From assembly GCA_000002435.2 (NCBI GenBank), contig CM018791.1: a stretch of DNA of 64,000 bases; one strand, given 5' to 3'. Positions 18,401 through 64,000 of the stretch are shown here, in pieces. This DNA comes from Giardia intestinalis. Its lineage: Eukaryota. The notes beneath the pieces are model-generated. The model did not search any database and was not told the DNA's origin. It was given only the letters and a program-made list of their open reading frames with translations. Numbering within the stretch: the first letter of the stretch is position 1; each line of letters begins with the position of its first letter. The position numbers and the translations under genes were made by a program.

Positions 18401-18518
18401 GGAGAAATTCGATTTTTCGATTTTGCAGGCCCGGGCCAGACCGCCACTCCCCACCCCGCAAACAGCCCCTTTGCAAGAAGGGATGGGGAGCACGTCTGCT
18501 GCTGTTTCTCCCCAGCGC

Positions 18519-18590
18519 GCCGGGATAGCTCAGTGGTAGAGCGTGGCACTCGTAATGCTAAGGTCGTGGGTTCAACTCCCGCTCTCGGCT
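18519..18590 (+). tRNA. tRNA-Thr (anticodon CGU).
   Basis: Manual cloverleaf: acceptor GCCGGGA/TCTCGGC (one G-U); D arm GCTC-AGTGGTA-GAGC; anticodon arm TGGCA-CTCGTAA-TGCTA with CGT at 18551-18553; 5-nt variable loop; T arm GTGGG-TTCAACT-CCCGC; discriminator T. No encoded CCA. Confidence 0.9.
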
Positions 18591-18596
18591 TTTACT
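18590..18596 (-). promoter_or_regulatory. Putative polyadenylation signal (AGTAAAA, an AGTRAAY-like element) for the RFC gene, overlapping its TGA stop.
   Basis: The minus strand reads TGAGTAAAAG directly at the RFC stop codon. The element is antisense to the last base of the tRNA-Thr(CGU) gene. Confidence 0.45.
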
Positions 18597-19561
18597 CACC
18601 CGCCCGCAGCGTGCCGGCACAGCGCCGCCGAGAGTCCCGCGACCTGGCTCTCGAGCGTCGCCCCGAGCGCGAGCGCCTCCTCCACGAGCGCAAGGGCCCG
18701 CACCGCCTCGGCCTTCCGCCGCGGCTCCACTTCCGAGGCCATCAGGGCCCGGAACACACACTGGACCACGTCCTCGGCTGAGCATCCCGCAGCCAGACAA
18801 CCCTGGATCTGGCCATACTTCTCCACGTACGGCATCGGTCGCAAGAGTTCCCGTCCCAGGGCAGGATGCGGCTTCGCCACAAGCTTATAGACGTCATCCG
18901 CCGTGGCGAGCTCCTTCTCTGTCATGAGGTGGAGGCTCTGGAGGACGTTGATGGCCTGGCGCAGGTCCCCGTCGGTAACCGCATGTATAGCGGCAAGGGC
19001 CCCTGGGGCCATCTGCATCCCCTCTGCATCTGCAATCTTCTCAAGCATAAGGAGGCAGGATTCGCGGGGCACAGGAAGAAAGCGGAACGCACAGCACCGG
19101 CTCAAGATGGCGGGAAGAAGCTTCTCTGGATAGTTGCACAAGAGACAAAAGCGCGCGTGCTTGATAGAGGTTTCCATCAAGCGGCGCAACGAGGCCTGTG
19201 CGACGCTCGACATGTGATCGCACTCGTCCATGATCACGATTTTGAACTTAGTTGCAGACGAAGACTGCTGGCTCAGGACGCTCCCACTTGTCACAAAGCC
19301 CTTTACTGTCTGTCGGATCACATCAACGCCAGAGTCATCTGACGCGTTGAGCTCGAGGACATGAGTACTGACGGCGTCCCCGAAGAGCTCATTCATCAGA
19401 GCCTTAATAAGAGTGGTCTTCCCAGTCCCTGGCTTTCCATAAAAGATCATGTGCGGAAGACGGCCCTCGCGGATGAGCGCACGGATGGCGGCGATAATCA
19501 GCTCGTGCGACACAACGCCCTCCGTCGTGGAGGGTCGGTACTTCTCAACCCAAGGAATCAT
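18596..19561 (-). CDS. Replication factor C small (40-kDa class) subunit, AAA+ clamp loader.
   Basis: N-terminal box WVEKYRP; Walker A GKPGTGKTT; DExD IVIMDECDHM; sensor SRC motif (ILSRCCAFRF). The 321-aa size fits RFC2-5. ATG at 19559-19561 behind tttaaaacagtaa. Confidence 0.9.
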   Translation of the reverse strand: MIPWVEKYRPSTTEGVVSHELIIAAIRALIREGRLPHMIFYGKPGTGKTTLIKALMNELFGDAVSTHVLELNASDDSGVDVIRQTVKGFVTSGSVLSQQSSSATKFKIVIMDECDHMSSVAQASLRRLMETSIKHARFCLLCNYPEKLLPAILSRCCAFRFLPVPRESCLLMLEKIADAEGMQMAPGALAAIHAVTDGDLRQAINVLQSLHLMTEKELATADDVYKLVAKPHPALGRELLRPMPYVEKYGQIQGCLAAGCSAEDVVQCVFRALMASEVEPRRKAEAVRALALVEEALALGATLESQVAGLSAALCRHAAGG

Positions 19562-38210: not shown

Positions 38211-38675
38211 CTAAATTTTTGTTATGCCGGCGGCAGGATTTGAGTGAAGGAGCTCAGCCGGTTGGCTTGGATGCGTTCTTTTGTATAACTCATCGCAGGG
38301 TCATACGGGGCAAGAACCTGTCATCACAGCTTTTAATTTAGTGCGATTCTGGAAGTCGGCAAAAAACGATATTAAATTGGAAATTCAAGTGAAATTTCAC
38401 GTCTGTCCTTTTGGATGATGGGCGTGAGAGACCCACTTTTCTATGTCTTCGTTGCATTCTGAACATTGCGAAGTGCCGTGTCCCGGGGAAGGTCTCGCCT
38501 CCTATTAGCTAGGGCAACCATCTGTGGTGTCCCTAGCATTCCCTGCTTGAGCTAGGGATCATCCAGTCGCTGCTTTGTCGCTCATTCTACCTATCACACG
38601 GACCTGATACTTTGAGATAGAGCGATCATCCTTGTCAGAGGCTGGTATACTGTTGTAGAGTAATCAGATTAATCT

Positions 38676-58399: not shown

Positions 58400-61315
58400 A
58401 CCAGATTCTAGCGTCGTATTGAGCTGGCTACGAATATGTCTTGATGAAGATCGCAGAGCCGCGTCAATGATGGGGTAGCTGCCGATGGTATCTGCGGCCG
58501 TGGCTACCGGTTCAGCAGCGTCATAATAGGAGTGATTGGAACTAGTACCAAAATATCCTGCTTCTAAGGCTATGATTTTCTTCATCAAACGACGGGTTTC
58601 TTCGTCCCGCAAATAAAGCTCCTTCTTTAGTAAGCCAATTTCACTCTGGTGCATGAGTATCTCGTTTCTGAGTATAGAGATCAGTTCATCTCGCCGCGCT
58701 AGCTCCACTTGCTCACGATTCTCTATTGACCGAAGCTTGTCGGTGTTTGCACTGTTTGCAGAATGCATGGTTGCCAGTAGTGAGTTATAGGACCTATTCT
58801 GGCGTTCTGTGGCGTCCAGCTTGCCTTGAAGATCGGCCAATCGGGCTGTTAGCTTTTCTGTTTCGTCTTTCGCTGCCGCTTCTGCCTCTGCAAGAGAGTT
58901 GTCTTTTTTCTTTACATCCTCGAGTAAAGTAGCCTTATCCTTCTCAAGAGAAGAGAGCTTATCACGGAGAATCGAGACAGACTGCTTCTCCTTCTCTAGC
59001 TGCTCCGTCAATGCCACACATCGAGCATTGACTTCAGTCAGTATCGTGGTGGTAGCTTCGTTGTGTTCTGGTGAGGGGTCTGTAGATGTGTGCTTATTGG
59101 CCGTCTCGATGTCTGCCATATGCGTCCTGGCAACATTGGTATGTGCGCTCCCTAGTTCAAAGCGTGTTAAATCCTTCTGCAACTCTGCTATTCTGCATTC
59201 GTTTTCCTCAAGCTTTTCTGATAGTAGTTTCTTTTCCACCTCCAGTCTCATCCTAGCCTCTTCCTTCTCAGAAAGCTTCTTTTGCAGCTCGACAATCTCG
59301 CCCTTTGCAGACCCAAGATCTGCCTTCAGAAGATTAATTTGATTCTTGAGCAGTTGTGTTGGCCTGGGGATCATGGTACCGGGCACCATCATGGCATCTT
59401 CCGTGTTGCTGCCCAACGAGCTCCTCTTGCTGCCGTTGTCCTCTTCTTCTGAGGTAAGATCTCGCGGAGTGGTGTTTTGGCTGGCTTCGTACTCGCGCTG
59501 AAGCTGTTTTATCTGCTTTAGAGCATTCTTTAGCTTTGTCTTGTCACTTTTCAGCTTGTCATTTTCTTGACGAAGATGTTGGTTTTCCTGTTCCAACAGG
59601 TTATCGGTCTTTTCCATATGCTTAGCCCTCGAAGGCGTAGAGTCTACATTCTTAAATTGCGACGAAGTTGGCGCAATAGATGCAGGCATAACGACATTGT
59701 TAGCGTCTGACTCTGAATAGATAGTCTCTTCGACAAGTTCCATTTGTATCTTGGGCATTACAGAATCAGTGTGCACGTGACGGGATAATCCTGTTCCAGT
59801 GCGCATTAGAGCGCTTACTTTGGCGCTGAGTTCCCGGTTCTCTGCCTCAAGAGCACTCTTTTCCGCACAGTGTTGCTCAGCAATGGTAGCTTGAAACTGG
59901 GCTTGTTCATCCAACTCGGTCGTCACTTGTTGCAGCTGCGCTTGGAGCGCAATGATCTCCATTTGCTTGTCCATGACCTGTTGTTGATATGTCAACTGTA
60001 GGGCCTCGATATGCTGCGAAGCTTGAAGGGAAGATTGTGGATAGTCAGAAGAACGAGCATCACGCTGCCAATTGACTGACTCTTTAAGCTGGGCTCCAAG
60101 CTCCAAGATTTGCTCCTCTAGGTCAGAAATCTTTTTCTTGAGTTGATTAGATTCATTAGTAGATAGCTTCGCAAACATTTCACGTAGATCTGTCTGAGCT
60201 TCTAGAAGATTAGATTTGGTCATAGTAAGAGTATCTTCAAGCTCATTGACGTAGTTTCTTAGATACTGCACTTCTGCAGCATACTTATCTCGTTCTTCCT
60301 GTAGAAGGGCACTATGAGCTTTCTCATGCTCCAGCTCCTTCTCAATCTCTAACTCTTTCTCAAGTTCCCTTTTCGCGGTCACTTCATTAAGTTTGATTAT
60401 TACGGACGATAGCTCCTGGTCCTTAGCATGCAGCTTTCTTTTATGTTCTAATAGCTCTTGCTCTGTTTGCGCAAGCTTTTCTTCGGCCGCCCGTGCTCGT
60501 GTTTCAAAGAGTTTAGCCCTCTCTATATGGTAGTTCAGTGTTGCCTGCTCGGAGCTGTTAGTCTTAGCAGTCAACATCTGAGCAAGCTCCTCCTTTTCAG
60601 CCAAGAGACGATTGCTTGTGATCGTCGAGTTTGCCAATAGCTGCAGGAGCTTACGGATCTTCTGGGCGTCTGTGGCATCCGGATAGGTGAGGTTAAGTGT
60701 CTGCTGAATGGAATCAATGGATACACCCTGGCGTCGAAGCTGCTGTTCGTCGTCTTCTGTAACTTCTAGGCGGCTGAGTTCACTGGTCATGGATATACTA
60801 ATTGATTGAGATAAGTCTGGATCTTGTCGCGGTGCTGGATCAGGCTTTTTCTGAGGAGGTCTAGTGAAGGAGCGCCCAGAGGAGTTGGCAGTCAAGTGTG
60901 CAAAACGGTTAGGGCGTCCAGTTCCCTCGGAAATCACCACTGCCCGTTTGTTCGGCGTAGTGCTCAGAGTCACCACGTCCTGAGAAGTGCTAGAAAGCTC
61001 GTCAACCTCGATGGCTCCGCAAAGTGCGCTGCCTGAGAGCTGCGAAGTCTGTCTAGCGAGAGAGTTGTGAGAAGGAAAAGGGGCAGGTTGAGCAAAGCGC
61101 CCGCTCTGTTGGAGTTCAGACAAACCGTCTGTATCTTGATGGCTGGGGGTGCCATAGTTCATTGTACTCGGGGTGTAATAGTTCTGAGTGATGGCGGGGA
61201 AAGACGGCGGGTGTATCACTGGGGAAATGTCCGTGCATGTTGGGGACGTCATATCAAAGTCACCCCTGCCAGAAGCTTCATGCACAGCCGCAGTGGAACC
61301 CGTTTGCTTTGACAT
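58385..61315 (-). CDS. Long coiled-coil protein (about 976 aa) with a Ser/Thr/Pro/Gln-rich N-terminal region.
   Basis: About 600 aa of heptad-rich sequence (ELEHEKAHSALLQEERDKYAAEVQYLRNYVNELEDT...). The track start is GTG at 61366, which would overlap the upstream gene's stop. I used the first ATG (MSKQTG) at 61315, preceded by AAAATTCTAAATTTC. Its 3' end overlaps the giant gene's stop by 15 nt. Confidence 0.8.
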   Translation of the reverse strand: MSKQTGSTAAVHEASGRGDFDMTSPTCTDISPVIHPPSFPAITQNYYTPSTMNYGTPSHQDTDGLSELQQSGRFAQPAPFPSHNSLARQTSQLSGSALCGAIEVDELSSTSQDVVTLSTTPNKRAVVISEGTGRPNRFAHLTANSSGRSFTRPPQKKPDPAPRQDPDLSQSISISMTSELSRLEVTEDDEQQLRRQGVSIDSIQQTLNLTYPDATDAQKIRKLLQLLANSTITSNRLLAEKEELAQMLTAKTNSSEQATLNYHIERAKLFETRARAAEEKLAQTEQELLEHKRKLHAKDQELSSVIIKLNEVTAKRELEKELEIEKELEHEKAHSALLQEERDKYAAEVQYLRNYVNELEDTLTMTKSNLLEAQTDLREMFAKLSTNESNQLKKKISDLEEQILELGAQLKESVNWQRDARSSDYPQSSLQASQHIEALQLTYQQQVMDKQMEIIALQAQLQQVTTELDEQAQFQATIAEQHCAEKSALEAENRELSAKVSALMRTGTGLSRHVHTDSVMPKIQMELVEETIYSESDANNVVMPASIAPTSSQFKNVDSTPSRAKHMEKTDNLLEQENQHLRQENDKLKSDKTKLKNALKQIKQLQREYEASQNTTPRDLTSEEEDNGSKRSSLGSNTEDAMMVPGTMIPRPTQLLKNQINLLKADLGSAKGEIVELQKKLSEKEEARMRLEVEKKLLSEKLEENECRIAELQKDLTRFELGSAHTNVARTHMADIETANKHTSTDPSPEHNEATTTILTEVNARCVALTEQLEKEKQSVSILRDKLSSLEKDKATLLEDVKKKDNSLAEAEAAAKDETEKLTARLADLQGKLDATERQNRSYNSLLATMHSANSANTDKLRSIENREQVELARRDELISILRNEILMHQSEIGLLKKELYLRDEETRRLMKKIIALEAGYFGTSSNHSYYDAAEPVATAADTIGSYPIIDAALRSSSRHIRSQLNTTLESGLNNF

Positions 61316-61341
61316 GAAATTTAGAATTTTACACTGGAAAA

Positions 61342-63654
61342 CTATGGGTTCTTGTCGCAGATGCACTTAGCAGACTCTAGGCGTGTTGTTGTTATGCTTC
61401 CGCAGCTAATGCTGGGAGTATTTAAGGCAGAGCTTACAGAACCCGAAGCCGCATCAACTTGTACCGTAAGAACTGTATCTGGCTTATTAGCCCCAGAGAC
61501 CGTTAATGTTGATGTGCTTCCAGCACCGTTCAAAGACACACTATTTGCACCTGCAGGGGAATCCTTTATAACAACGAAGGAGACAGTAATCTCCGAGGTA
61601 CCGGTTAAGGCAGAGATTGTCAGGTTCGTATCTTCTGTTGAATCCGATTGAATATGAGCGAAGTGATTAGGAGATGCATCTGCCTCTGCCGTGATGTTAA
61701 CGCCGCGCTCAGGAGCCAGAGGTGTAACCGTTACTGGACCGCCGGTAATAGAGAATGTATTTCCAGCTCCTCCAACGCTGAGAGTGGAAGTCGTAATGGT
61801 TTCTACCGTCAAGGTTCGATGAGCAATTGTATCGACCGTCATGGACTCTGTAAACACGAGTGTGTTTGCAGTCAGTTTAGAGTTGGAAAGAGACATCGTC
61901 TGAGCATGTATAACGGGTACGTCTAGTTTTTCTGCATTGAGGGTAGTTGCATTCAGCTGTGAACTAATCTCTAGGGTCGTAGCGTTGAGAGTGGCTCTCG
62001 CGCTGGCACTATTCTTAATAAGAGAGACGTTGAATGCAATGGTCACGGCCTTGATTGTGTCAAAGAATGCCCTAGTGACCGTTAGTGCAGAATTAGAAAG
62101 AGTTGTGCCGCTGTTCAATGACTCCAATTGAGTGTCAACGGTCGTCACGTTAATAGAACTACTTCTCTGCTCTAAAAAGCTAGGCGTGATTAGCGAATAC
62201 GTTGTTGGTGCACCTGCTTGTCCTGTAGGTGGTGCTTGTAAAATCGCAGGGTCAGACCAGTTGCTGTACCCCACCAGAGCTTTATTTGTCACTGTCAGAT
62301 TGGCAACCTTTAGGTCAACTAGCTTGATGTAAAGGACAACAATCAATATTATCAATATTATAGTTAATAGGAAAAGAATAATGATGATTATGTAAATCAA
62401 GAGGTGTTCACGCATGACGCTCAGGCACCCGCCGTGTCTCTGCTCCTTCATAATGGTTCTAGATTCATAAAGGGTCGACTCCTCATTAATCAGCACGCGA
62501 GACTCGGCGGTGTAGACAGCATCGTCTATTGATTCAATATGGGAAACAGCTGAAGACTCTGCGCTCGAGATCTCTATAAGCGGGCCCGTACGTCTTACTG
62601 GTACTACTTTAGCTACTGTGATGGCTGGCAGCGGTTCTTGTGACTGCCCTGTGCTCTCCGAGGGCGGTTGATATGTCTCCTGGTTTTGCGGGATTGCATT
62701 AATCGTCTCAACAGGCAATGGAAAAGTTGTAGTAGAGAACCTCTGAAACTGTTCCCTAATAGTTGGATGCAAAATAGCCCCGTCGAAGTAGAAGACGAAG
62801 CGGGGCGCCCCGAAGGAGGCGGCCTCGCGGGCGGCGGCGGGGCGCTCGAGGTACGCCTGGACCTTCCGGTAGCGGAGGTACGTGAGCTCGGCGGCGCGGC
62901 TCCCGGGCTGGGCGCGGAGCTCGGCGGCCGGGGGCGCGTAGAGGACGAAGCGGCGGTCCCGGACGAGGTCGCTCCGGCCCTGGGCGAAGGCGGGGTTGAC
63001 GAAGACCGAGAGCGCGTGGCCGGCGCGGGCGCGGGTGACGACGGCCCCGAGGAAGAGGTCGCCGGGGAGCCGGAGGGGGACGGGGCCCGCGAAGCCCAGG
63101 GGGACGGCGACGGCGCGGAGGAGGGGCGGCCGGGCGAGCGGGAGGGCGTCTGGGCGGGTGCAGCTCTCGCAGCGGAGGCCGACCCGCCGGGCCCCTGCGG
63201 CGAGGGCCTCTCCGGGCGCGAGGACGGCGCTCGCCCCGGGCTGGGAGGGCGCGCCGCACGCGGGGCAGGGCCCGGGGAGCCCGAAGAGCGCGGCGCAGAC
63301 GGGGGCCGGGAGGGAGCGGACGAGCGCCGGGAGCGCCCCGGGGTCTGGGAGCGGCCCGAGCTGCGCGGCAAGAGGCCCCAGGTCGAGCGTCCCCGCCCCG
63401 GCGAGCGCGGCGCGGAGGAGCCCGGCCCAGAGCTGCGGGGCGTCTCCGGCGGGCGGGGGGCCGTCGAGGAGGGCCTCGAGCCGCCCGAGGACGAGCGCCT
63501 GGTGGACGACGCGGAGGAACGCGCCTGCGAGGCCCTCGGGGTCGCCGGCGAGGACGAACGAGGGCGCGGCTGCCGCGGGCGGGCGTCCGTCCCCCGCCGC
63601 CGTGGGCCGGGGCGCCGGGTCGAAGAGGCCCGAGGGCTGCGGCGCAGACGTCAT
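61342..63654 (-). CDS. Composition-chimeric ORF. The 80-87% GC Ala/Pro/Gly/Arg-rich N-terminal region of about 286 aa (with a CxxC...CxxC zinc-ribbon-like motif) is followed by a normal-GC linker, a TM helix and a 330-aa Thr/Ser/Asn-rich ectodomain.
   Basis: Continuous frame from the ATG at 63652-63654 to the stop at 61342. The frame crosses the GC boundary (about 62797) smoothly (..FGAPRFVFYFDGAILHPTIREQF..) and stays open for about 113 normal-GC codons before the TM helix LLIYIIIIILFLLTIILIILIVVLYI. Alternative internal starts exist at 62451 and 62415. Confidence 0.55.
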   Translation of the reverse strand: MTSAPQPSGLFDPAPRPTAAGDGRPPAAAAPSFVLAGDPEGLAGAFLRVVHQALVLGRLEALLDGPPPAGDAPQLWAGLLRAALAGAGTLDLGPLAAQLGPLPDPGALPALVRSLPAPVCAALFGLPGPCPACGAPSQPGASAVLAPGEALAAGARRVGLRCESCTRPDALPLARPPLLRAVAVPLGFAGPVPLRLPGDLFLGAVVTRARAGHALSVFVNPAFAQGRSDLVRDRRFVLYAPPAAELRAQPGSRAAELTYLRYRKVQAYLERPAAAREAASFGAPRFVFYFDGAILHPTIREQFQRFSTTTFPLPVETINAIPQNQETYQPPSESTGQSQEPLPAITVAKVVPVRRTGPLIEISSAESSAVSHIESIDDAVYTAESRVLINEESTLYESRTIMKEQRHGGCLSVMREHLLIYIIIIILFLLTIILIILIVVLYIKLVDLKVANLTVTNKALVGYSNWSDPAILQAPPTGQAGAPTTYSLITPSFLEQRSSSINVTTVDTQLESLNSGTTLSNSALTVTRAFFDTIKAVTIAFNVSLIKNSASARATLNATTLEISSQLNATTLNAEKLDVPVIHAQTMSLSNSKLTANTLVFTESMTVDTIAHRTLTVETITTSTLSVGGAGNTFSITGGPVTVTPLAPERGVNITAEADASPNHFAHIQSDSTEDTNLTISALTGTSEITVSFVVIKDSPAGANSVSLNGAGSTSTLTVSGANKPDTVLTVQVDAASGSVSSALNTPSISCGSITTTRLESAKCICDKNP

Positions 63655-63664
63655 TTTGGGCGGC

Positions 63665-63669
63665 AAAAA
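63665..63669 (-). terminator. Pol III oligo-T terminator (T5) immediately after tRNA-Thr(AGU).
   Basis: Minus strand reads ...attcggcTCTTTTTGccgcccaaaATG. The T5 run begins 2 nt after the tRNA discriminator base. Confidence 0.55.
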
Positions 63670-63670
63670 G

Positions 63671-63744
63671 AGCCGAATACGGTGCTCGAAACCGTGACCT
63701 CGACATTACTAGTGTCGCGCTCTAGCCAACTGAGCTAATTCGGC
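63671..63744 (-). tRNA. tRNA-Thr (anticodon AGU).
   Basis: Manual cloverleaf on the minus strand: acceptor GCCGAAT/ATTCGGC (7 Watson-Crick pairs); D arm GCTC-AGTTGGCTA-GAGC; anticodon arm CGACA-CTAGTAA-TGTCG with anticodon AGT; variable loop AGGTC; T arm ACGGT-TTCGAGC-ACCGT; discriminator T. Confidence 0.9.
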
Positions 63745-63799
63745 ACGGGCACCCCCCAACGCCTGAAATGGCTATTGTCTTTTTCCTGAGGGGACCGCA

Positions 63800-63806
63800 G
63801 TTTACT
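63800..63806 (-). promoter_or_regulatory. Polyadenylation signal AGTAAAC (AGTRAAY) overlapping the TGA stop of the PDI-like gene.
   Basis: Minus strand reads GACAAGGAGCTCTGAGTAAACtgcgg. Confidence 0.5.
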
Positions 63807-64000
63807 CAGAGCTCCTTGTCCCCATCGGGGCGAACCACCCGGCCGTCCTTCCCGAGCGGGACGCCTGTGAGCTGCCGCGTCTTGTGCTTCTTGAGGAACT
63901 CGATGATAGAGCCCACCGGGTCCTCTCCAAAGTCTGCCTGGAAGACCTGCTTCTTAGGGCTGGCGTTATCATAGATGACAATCTTAGGGCCAGCAGAGGA
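63806..64000 (-). CDS. 3' end of a thioredoxin-fold / protein-disulfide-isomerase-like gene (5'-partial, continues beyond the window), ending in -DKEL.
   Basis: The minus frame that is open to the window edge encodes ..KIVIYDNASPKKQVFQADFGEDPVGSIIEFLKKHKTRQLTGVPLGKDGRVVRPDGDKEL*. The V-I-Y-D/N-G ... FxxFLKKH pattern resembles the C-terminal thioredoxin domain of PDIs, and the terminal KEL resembles a K/HDEL ER-retrieval signal. The reverse-strand ORF 63768..63974 looks spurious. Confidence 0.45.
   Translation of the reverse strand, partial: SSAGPKIVIYDNASPKKQVFQADFGEDPVGSIIEFLKKHKTRQLTGVPLGKDGRVVRPDGDKEL

Follow-up and report, generated by a model that had tools for sequence, protein, structure and literature searches.

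A GC-rich block in GL50803_0028832

We analysed a 64,000-nucleotide stretch of the Giardia intestinalis WB genome (contig CM018791.1; hereafter the window), the minus strand of which carries an uninterrupted open reading frame (ORF) at 61342..63654 with its ATG at 63652-63654. The ORF corresponds with 100% identity to GL50803_0028832, a 770-aa hypothetical protein of G. intestinalis WB, and its 5′ part forms a block of very high GC content, which is the subject of this report. The features of the gene and of the adjacent tRNA gene are as follows.

62780..63654, minus strand: GC-rich block, codons 1-292 of GL50803_0028832 (from composition, family homology, AlphaFold and paralogue identity)
62780..62802, minus strand: 3′ junction motif CGCTTCGTCTTCTACTTCGACGG, where near-identity to the paralogue ends and GC drops to background
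63256..63267, minus strand: first CxxC of a zinc ribbon (CPAC, codons 130-133; translation and family alignment)
63160..63171, minus strand: second CxxC of the zinc ribbon (CESC, codons 162-165; translation and family alignment)
61342..62779, minus strand: remainder of the coding sequence at normal GC (46%), comprising linker, transmembrane (TM) helix, Ser/Thr/Asn-rich C-terminal region and stop
62317..62403, minus strand: single TM helix, codons 418-446, LLIYIIIIILFLLTIILIILIVVLYIKLV (read from the translation)
63670..63744, minus strand: tRNA-Thr(AGT) (ARAGORN; Rfam, 62 bits)

At 81.5%, the GC content of the block (62780-63654) exceeds the window background (0.484 ± 0.044) by ∼7.5 standard deviations. 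In 200-bp windows, the GC content rises from 0.40-0.52 outside to 0.80-0.84 across ∼62780-63650, and the two edges are sharp, each ∼30 bp wide. An initial annotation of the window had described an abrupt block of > 80% GC in a ∼48-50% GC background, and this description holds, as does its count of 52 G+C in the 60 positions at 63181-63240, which we obtained again. The same annotation let the block end at ∼62797; here the step itself was confirmed but its position was not, since the GC tract of high identity to the paralogue ends at ∼62780.

In the frame of the ORF, the GC contents of first, second and third codon positions (GC1/2/3) are 0.857/0.626/0.962 in the block and 0.47/0.47/0.45 in the remaining 478 codons. 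Third bases in the block are C (66%) or G (30%) for the most part. The other genes read in the window have a third-base G+C of 47-55%, far below that of the block, the codon usage of which the initial annotation had called unlike that of every other gene here. By contrast, the argument that an uninterrupted frame would be unlikely by chance did not survive: three of the six frames across the block are free of stops (the other three contain 1-3), so that an open frame is unremarkable at ∼82% GC. The coding frame is identified by the codon-position periodicity of GC and, above all, by homology, not by its openness. An antisense ORF was ruled out as a real gene, as the codon-position GC pattern fits only frame 0 of the minus strand. 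A tandem or low-complexity repeat was rejected because Tandem Repeats Finder reported no meaningful tandem repeats in the block, and ribosomal DNA (rDNA) or another known RNA because Rfam gave no rRNA match here. No second copy of the block was found inside the 64-kb window; the junction motif likewise occurs once in the window, and the same junction was present at all six loci compared. Pfam had no match for the remainder of the coding sequence (61342..62779).

The tRNA-Thr(AGT) gene lies 15 bp upstream of the block ATG and is followed by a run of five T and then CAAAATG; in strain DHA2, tRNA and block are arranged in the same way (tRNA at 4923-4997 of contig L004). The initial annotation regarded the tRNA gene as a landing site for foreign DNA. 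Its adjacency to the block stands, but the landing site does not: within 61300-64000 there is no repeat involving the tRNA at 63670-63744 and no att-like duplication of its end, and the domain is native, as described below. The flanking genes are ordinary Giardia genes, encoding a thioredoxin protein resembling protein disulphide isomerase (PDI) and a coiled-coil protein, rather than an integrase. The C-terminal end of the thioredoxin/PDI-like gene is found at 63804-64000 (minus strand; ∼59-60% GC), directly upstream of the tRNA, and its product ends in ...GDKEL*, resembling an endoplasmic reticulum retention signal.

A native domain of a diplomonad membrane-protein family

To place the protein segment, we scanned the 286-aa block exhaustively with HMMER against 1.84 billion representative proteins. 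Eight proteins matched in all, and there was no bacterial, archaeal or viral relative among the proteins scanned. The best match was a WB paralogue, GL50803_3564 (E = 1.9e-40, 37% identity over residues 6-285), whose gene has a normal GC content (38-53% along its whole length, ∼45%). Other family matches were the G. muris proteins GMRT_13193 and GMRT_13203 and four unnamed Logan proteins. All are built alike: a ∼290-aa domain that contains the two CxxC motifs is followed by a linker, a single TM helix and a tail rich in Ser, Thr and Asn, and the position of the TM helix is kept across the family alignment. Eighteen residues are invariant in the family (F11, G37, D38, G41, W76, L95, P116, C130, C133, C162, C165, P185, P193, A204, R247, T258, L260 and G282). 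These include the four Cys of the CPACG/CESC pair, which the initial annotation had likened to a zinc ribbon and which is indeed present. The N-terminal 'GLFD' is also conserved and supports as the true start the ATG at 63652-63654, at which the block had been said to begin. The block differs from unconverted family members in its composition: Gly, Ala, Arg and Pro (GARP residues) account for 54% of the block versus ∼22-27% in these relatives, while Phe, Tyr, Met, Ile, Asn and Lys (FYMINK residues) account for 7% versus 19-27%.

The AlphaFold model of the domain (predicted local distance difference test score of 82) has the fold of ubiquitin-specific proteases (USPs), with palm, thumb and fingers and the zinc ribbon in the fingers. 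Sequence comparisons did not reveal this relationship. Neither the block nor any of the eight family members matched Pfam, including PF00443, at E ≤ 1; PDB sequence searches with the block and the family gave no significant match; and hhalign of the family against an alignment of real Giardia USP returned a probability of 1%. As to the catalytic Cys and His boxes, the family has no invariant His, and its sole invariant Cys are the four of the zinc ribbon. At the start of helix 1, residues 42-44 read L-A-G in WB and L/I/F-V-G/S in the relatives, this mapping of the USP active site being a reading by eye rather than a residue-level superposition. Because no Cys beyond the zinc-ribbon four is family-wide, no His is invariant and no USP matches in sequence, the domain is probably a catalytically dead pseudo-USP. 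It is not a member of peptidase C19 by sequence and catalytic-residue tests, despite its USP fold. Presumably, the domain is cytosolic and carried on a single-pass membrane protein.

The block is also present at the orthologous locus of other Giardia assemblages. In DHA2 (assemblage A2), one contig runs from the PDI gene through the tRNA and the complete block to the remainder of the gene, with 98.97% identity. In P15 (assemblage E) and BAH15c1 (assemblage B), the final 131-169 bp of the block are found at the orthologous locus, followed by the junction seen in WB, and the 3′ junction was also found in GS_b and in > 10 short-read assemblies; it recurs in at least six assemblies from four assemblages. 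Taken together, the block was observed at the orthologous locus of A1, A2, E and B. The initial annotation had stated that the same GC-rich domain at orthologous loci would speak against a recent acquisition, and this is what A2, E and B display: the block is an old, native N-terminal domain of a diplomonad membrane-protein family.

The block has led to truncated gene models in several annotations. In WB, the old model GL50803_28832 has 369 aa and starts with MKEQRHGG, the P15 model GLP15_3499 has 357 aa, and for BAH15c1 the model QR46_4561, of 475 aa, was made to start from a TTG at the junction. In BAH15c1, the orthologue block at the contig end (L002, 95-135) differs from all other copies by several 1-bp indels (net +3); these are probably sequencing errors in GC-rich homopolymers, although a stretch that is really frameshifted is also possible.

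Two copies in concerted evolution

A second copy of the block resides at a different locus, next to CTP synthase and EMP24. In GS_b (assemblage B), the protein ESU41925.1 from this locus begins, at a contig end, with the same block, while its TM and C-terminal part has only ∼30% aa identity to the window protein. The GS_b gene is annotated as 'Chromosome segregation ATPase, partial', a name without support here. The same paralogue was found in P15 (L008), DHA2 (L013/L014) and > 10 ENA/Logan assemblies, always beginning at a contig end inside the block; the CTP-synthase-adjacent locus was thus seen in A2, in an A-type ENA/Logan sample, in E and in B. Since the tract is at both loci in all lineages seen, it does not represent a recent one-off duplication. 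A profile search with the family alignment returned three proteins only, none of them a WB or DHA2 protein for this paralogue, and two metagenome scans for exact 30-33-mers of the block gave no matches. A real USP-type deubiquitinase gene (Pfam UCH, 'ubiquitin carboxyl-terminal hydrolase 4') is located three genes from the pseudo-USP paralogue (5627-6973 in L008, 5827-7116 in L001 and 7533-8840 in L009).

In WB, the window gene (KAE8303169.1) shares its chromosome of 1.97 Mb (1,973,847 bp) with CTP synthase (KAE8303190.1); their accession numbers differ by 21. The accession order, the order of genes in L015 and the fact that the window lacks CTP synthase suggest that the second copy lies beyond position 64000 and that the two face each other head-to-head.

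To compare the copies, we used the last 141-448 bp (3′) of the block from the paralogue sequences of DHA2, P15, an A-type ENA sample and GS_b. Within genomes, the orthologue and paralogue blocks were identical in DHA2 (0 differences in 448 positions) and in P15 (0/162), and the WB block was identical to an A-type ENA paralogue (0/141). Between lineages, the WB block differed from the GS_b paralogue at 31 of 413 positions and from the BAH15c1 orthologue at 20 of 145, the latter figure being partly indel noise at the contig end. The paralogous copies within a genome are therefore more alike than orthologues of different lineages. Moreover, three P15-specific variants are present in both P15 copies, and B-specific variants are common to the GS_b paralogue and the BAH15c1 orthologue. 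Such lineage-specific variants common to both loci are a signature of concerted evolution; the two blocks evolve in concert.

The homogenized tract has a sharp 3′ boundary to diverged flanks. Identity falls from ∼100% to ∼43% within ∼30 bp at TTCGACGG. In the 900 bp past the junction, orthologue and paralogue show ∼57% mismatch, i.e. they are effectively unalignable, versus 1% (A1-A2), 12% (A-E) and 27% (A-B) between orthologues. Consistently, BLAST of the window against the DHA2 paralogue contig gave a match only at 62755-63227. The GC step (62780-62810) and the end of paralogue identity coincide within ∼30 bp.

The repeat also leaves its mark on assemblies. Every short-read assembly examined, > 10 in number, breaks inside the block (contig ends of L009-L023, L001, L002, L003, L008 and L013). 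The block sequence retained at the contig end is exactly 30 bp long in Logan contigs (k = 31) and exactly 141 bp long in a MEGAHIT k141 contig. Contigs ending after k − 1 or k bases indicate a true exact repeat, at which the de Bruijn graph branches, rather than a GC-related loss of coverage. The block thereby explains breaks in short-read Giardia assemblies as well as the truncated gene annotations.

Substitutions within the block follow an unusual pattern. Between assemblages A and B, the proportion of synonymous differences (pS) is 0.10 and that of non-synonymous differences (pN) 0.066, giving a pN/pS of 0.65; in the flanks, pS is 0.57-0.65 (0.57 in the remainder of the coding sequence) and pN/pS 0.23-0.31. 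Divergence of the block amounts to ∼20-28% of the flank rate at the A1-A2, A-E and A-B depths; a rate reduced alike at every depth speaks against one recent introgression. The unpolarized A-versus-B differences comprise 14 sites with a strong base (S, i.e. G or C) in A and a weak base (W, i.e. A or T) in B, five of the reverse kind and 12 S↔S changes. Few synonymous differences combined with comparatively frequent replacements would be expected under a strong fixation bias towards G/C, as AT alleles would be purged and weakly deleterious, GC-increasing replacements would pass.

In G. muris, GMRT_13193 and GMRT_13203 are 11 kb apart and tail-to-tail (CM016926.1, 1239128-1254671; L005 and L024) and enclose CTP synthase, EMP24, CAF1 and a pseudouridine synthase; in G. 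intestinalis, the genes for CAF1, pseudouridine synthase and PDI are instead 5′ of the window gene. GMRT_13193 is the syntenic counterpart of the CTP-synthase-adjacent paralogue. The neighbourhood is rearranged between the two species, possibly by inversion.

Elsewhere in the window, the sole other stretch above 65% GC is 18501-18850 (up to 74% per 200 bp), which constitutes the last ∼50 codons of an ORF resembling a replication factor C small subunit (18596..19561, minus strand; GC3 0.86-0.93). It begins 6 bp past the 3′ end of tRNA-Thr(CGT) (18519-18590, plus strand), so that both GC-rich stretches of the window abut the 3′ end of a tRNA-Thr gene. The Giardia box C/D snoRNA GlsR5, which marks the source organism, is encoded at 38250-38338 (minus strand; Rfam RF02474, 122.8 bits).

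Origin of the GC enrichment

The observations describe a native domain in two copies that undergoes concerted evolution, with a GC enrichment that coincides with the common tract. We consider it likely that this domain is kept nearly identical to its paralogue copy by ectopic gene conversion and has been enriched in GC by GC-biased gene conversion (gBGC). Of the three options raised by the initial annotation, localized GC-biased gene conversion is the best supported, the GC step coinciding with the end of paralogue identity; because the enrichment coincides with the conversion tract, gBGC is its best explanation. At the nucleotide level, GC3 is near saturation, GC1, GC2 and the use of GARP residues are pulled up, and pN/pS is raised. 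We infer that a bias of conversion, and not of mutation or selection, caused the enrichment. Recurrent non-reciprocal recombination between the two blocks would keep them nearly identical within any one Giardia lineage; outside the blocks, the two genes have diverged past nucleotide alignment. If mismatch repair in the conversion heteroduplexes favours G/C, as we assume, the converted tract alone would be driven to 82% GC and 96% GC3, and the same bias would draw the protein towards Ala, Pro, Gly and Arg. The sharp 3′ edge of the GC block would then mark the end of paralogue homology and hence of conversion. There are precedents for several of these elements: genes in gene-conversion tracts of Giardia AI and AII are enriched in GC (PMC12669663), mammalian paralogue regions under concerted evolution have a raised GC3 (PMC2720389), mouse Fxy has an intragenic GC step at the pseudoautosomal boundary (PMC2631073), and gBGC was proposed for the 75%-GC rDNA of Giardia (PMC10123126).

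Several points weigh against this interpretation. gBGC has not been experimentally demonstrated in Giardia, and assemblage AI was reported to be asexual (PMC12669663), so that conversion would have to be mitotic or take place during nuclear exchange. The within-genome identities come from short-read assemblies, in which two copies could be collapsed into one consensus, and the copy comparisons cover only the 3′ 141-448 bp of the paralogue block. As the substitutions are unpolarized, a fixation bias by gBGC is inseparable from a recombination-associated mutation bias. Finally, the N-terminal domain of G. muris GMRT_13193 (L005, 5001-5750) has 65-72% GC and a GC3 of ∼0.7, compared with 39-55% GC in the rest of the gene, yet its neighbour GMRT_13203 is of normal GC and dissimilar, and there is no similar partner nearby. 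A GC rise without a similar partner means that ongoing ectopic conversion is not the whole story in G. muris; some GC pressure on the domain may predate the present two-copy conversion or be independent of it.

Among the rival explanations, a local mutational bias is possible but unlikely. Here, break repair, recombination or a regional process, e.g. beside a highly transcribed tRNA gene, would be mutagenic from AT to GC, and conversion would merely copy the result. Like gBGC, such a bias predicts that the enrichment coincides spatially with the recombining tract, and it could accommodate both the tRNA-Thr 3′ end beside the only other window stretch of > 65% GC and the partnerless GC-raised domain of GMRT_13193. 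However, mutagenic repair is expected to raise divergence, not to lower it; a pS of 0.10 versus ∼0.6 is better explained by a fixation bias that purges W alleles, and the block breaks off sharply where homology to the paralogue stops, not at a fixed distance from the tRNA. The slow evolution of the block, 4-5 times below the flanks at all divergence depths, would also be expected if selection favoured the GC-rich sequence or the Ala/Pro/Gly/Arg-rich domain as such, be it for mRNA or DNA structure, expression or domain identity, and the invariant residues and the confident fold have been retained. We nevertheless regard selection as quite improbable, since the higher pN/pS in the block than in the flanks suggests relaxed or overridden protein constraint, a GC3 of 0.96 is far above that of the other window genes read, and family members of normal GC keep the fold-defining residues, so that the composition is not needed for the fold.

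The remaining two options of the initial annotation fared worse. That a high-GC bacterial or viral domain was inserted by the tRNA gene and fused in frame is very improbable. The abrupt compositional step, the adjacent tRNA gene and the lack of Pfam and PDB sequence matches would fit a foreign origin, but the block has full-length homology to N-terminal domains of normal-GC Giardia and diplomonad-like proteins with the same architecture, it has no prokaryotic or viral match in the HMMER scan, it is present in A1, A2, E and B and at two loci, and the tRNA end is not duplicated in att-like fashion. An assembly chimera, or a contaminant joined in frame by chance, is hardly conceivable: the breaks of short-read contigs inside the block might suggest one, but their position at exactly k − 1 or k bases marks a genuine repeat, the independent DHA2 assembly runs contiguously from the tRNA through the block into the rest of the gene, and the 3′ junction recurs in P15, BAH15c1, GS_b and the > 10 short-read assemblies.

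A further idea would build on gBGC and concerns where recombination starts. As both window stretches of > 65% GC start within ∼20 bp of a tRNA-Thr 3′ end, Giardia tRNA genes might be fixed hot spots of mitotic or inter-nuclear recombination that initiate GC-biased repair in the adjacent coding sequence, and the two blocks, as head-to-head inverted repeats ∼20 genes apart, might be able to invert the intervening segment. We regard this as a long shot. The different gene order around the two G. muris paralogues is compatible with such inversions, and if the idea were true, each of the two pseudo-USP membrane-protein genes would acquire the promoter of the other through inversion between the GC blocks.

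In the literature searched, we found no paper naming GL50803_28832 or GL50803_3564, and no description of comparable GC-rich blocks in Giardia. As a process, mosaic concerted evolution accompanied by GC enrichment is well known; the Giardia case is new to that literature and unusually extreme and clean. A single ORF offers a natural experiment, with a domain of 82% GC (GC3 96%), a remainder of 46% GC and the step at the end of paralogue identity. If gBGC is its cause, the locus would provide strong sequence evidence for this process in a lineage of disputed sexuality, and for a force capable of altering half of the residues in a folded domain. In any case, the block is a concrete locus at which ectopic conversion and repair bias in Giardia can be measured. 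It also brings to light a family of membrane-anchored USP-fold proteins in diplomonads, probably pseudo-deubiquitinases, that was unannotated before. The block has no detectable sequence similarity to USPs (peptidase C19) or to the pseudo-USPs Pan2 and Sad1/USP39; unlike these, the Giardia domain is joined to a TM helix and a tail rich in Ser, Thr and Asn, and its family was found only in diplomonad-like sequences.

The mammalian histone and Hsp70 families reportedly show raised GC in their converted part (studies by Galtier in 2003 and Kudla in 2004 are said to describe this). Mosaic concerted paralogue pairs are known from BMP8A/B, DDX19A/B and TUBG1/2 (PMC2720389); as in Giardia, the copies of these mammalian pairs resemble each other within a lineage along one part of the gene only, with diverging flanks, a raised GC3 in the concerted part and a stable copy number. 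The Giardia pair is far more extreme (GC3 of 0.96 versus 0.45, and 82% versus 46% GC) and sits in a protist genome of 49% GC, its concerted part is one whole protein domain, and the AI lineage is without demonstrated meiosis. Mouse Fxy (Mid1; PMC2631073) resembles the Giardia gene in its abrupt intragenic GC step, in many replacements to GC-rich codons in the recombining part only, and in protein evolution overridden by a recombination-associated bias. The driver in Fxy is allelic meiotic recombination in the pseudoautosomal region after a translocation, whereas in Giardia a paralogue on the same chromosome acts as the partner, and the Giardia state is old, dating from before the split of assemblages A and B. 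The Giardia rDNA (∼75% GC including spacers; PMC10123126) is, like the block, multi-copy, homogenized and far above the genomic GC content, but it is a tandem, subtelomeric and non-coding array, whereas the block is a two-copy coding domain at an internal chromosomal position.

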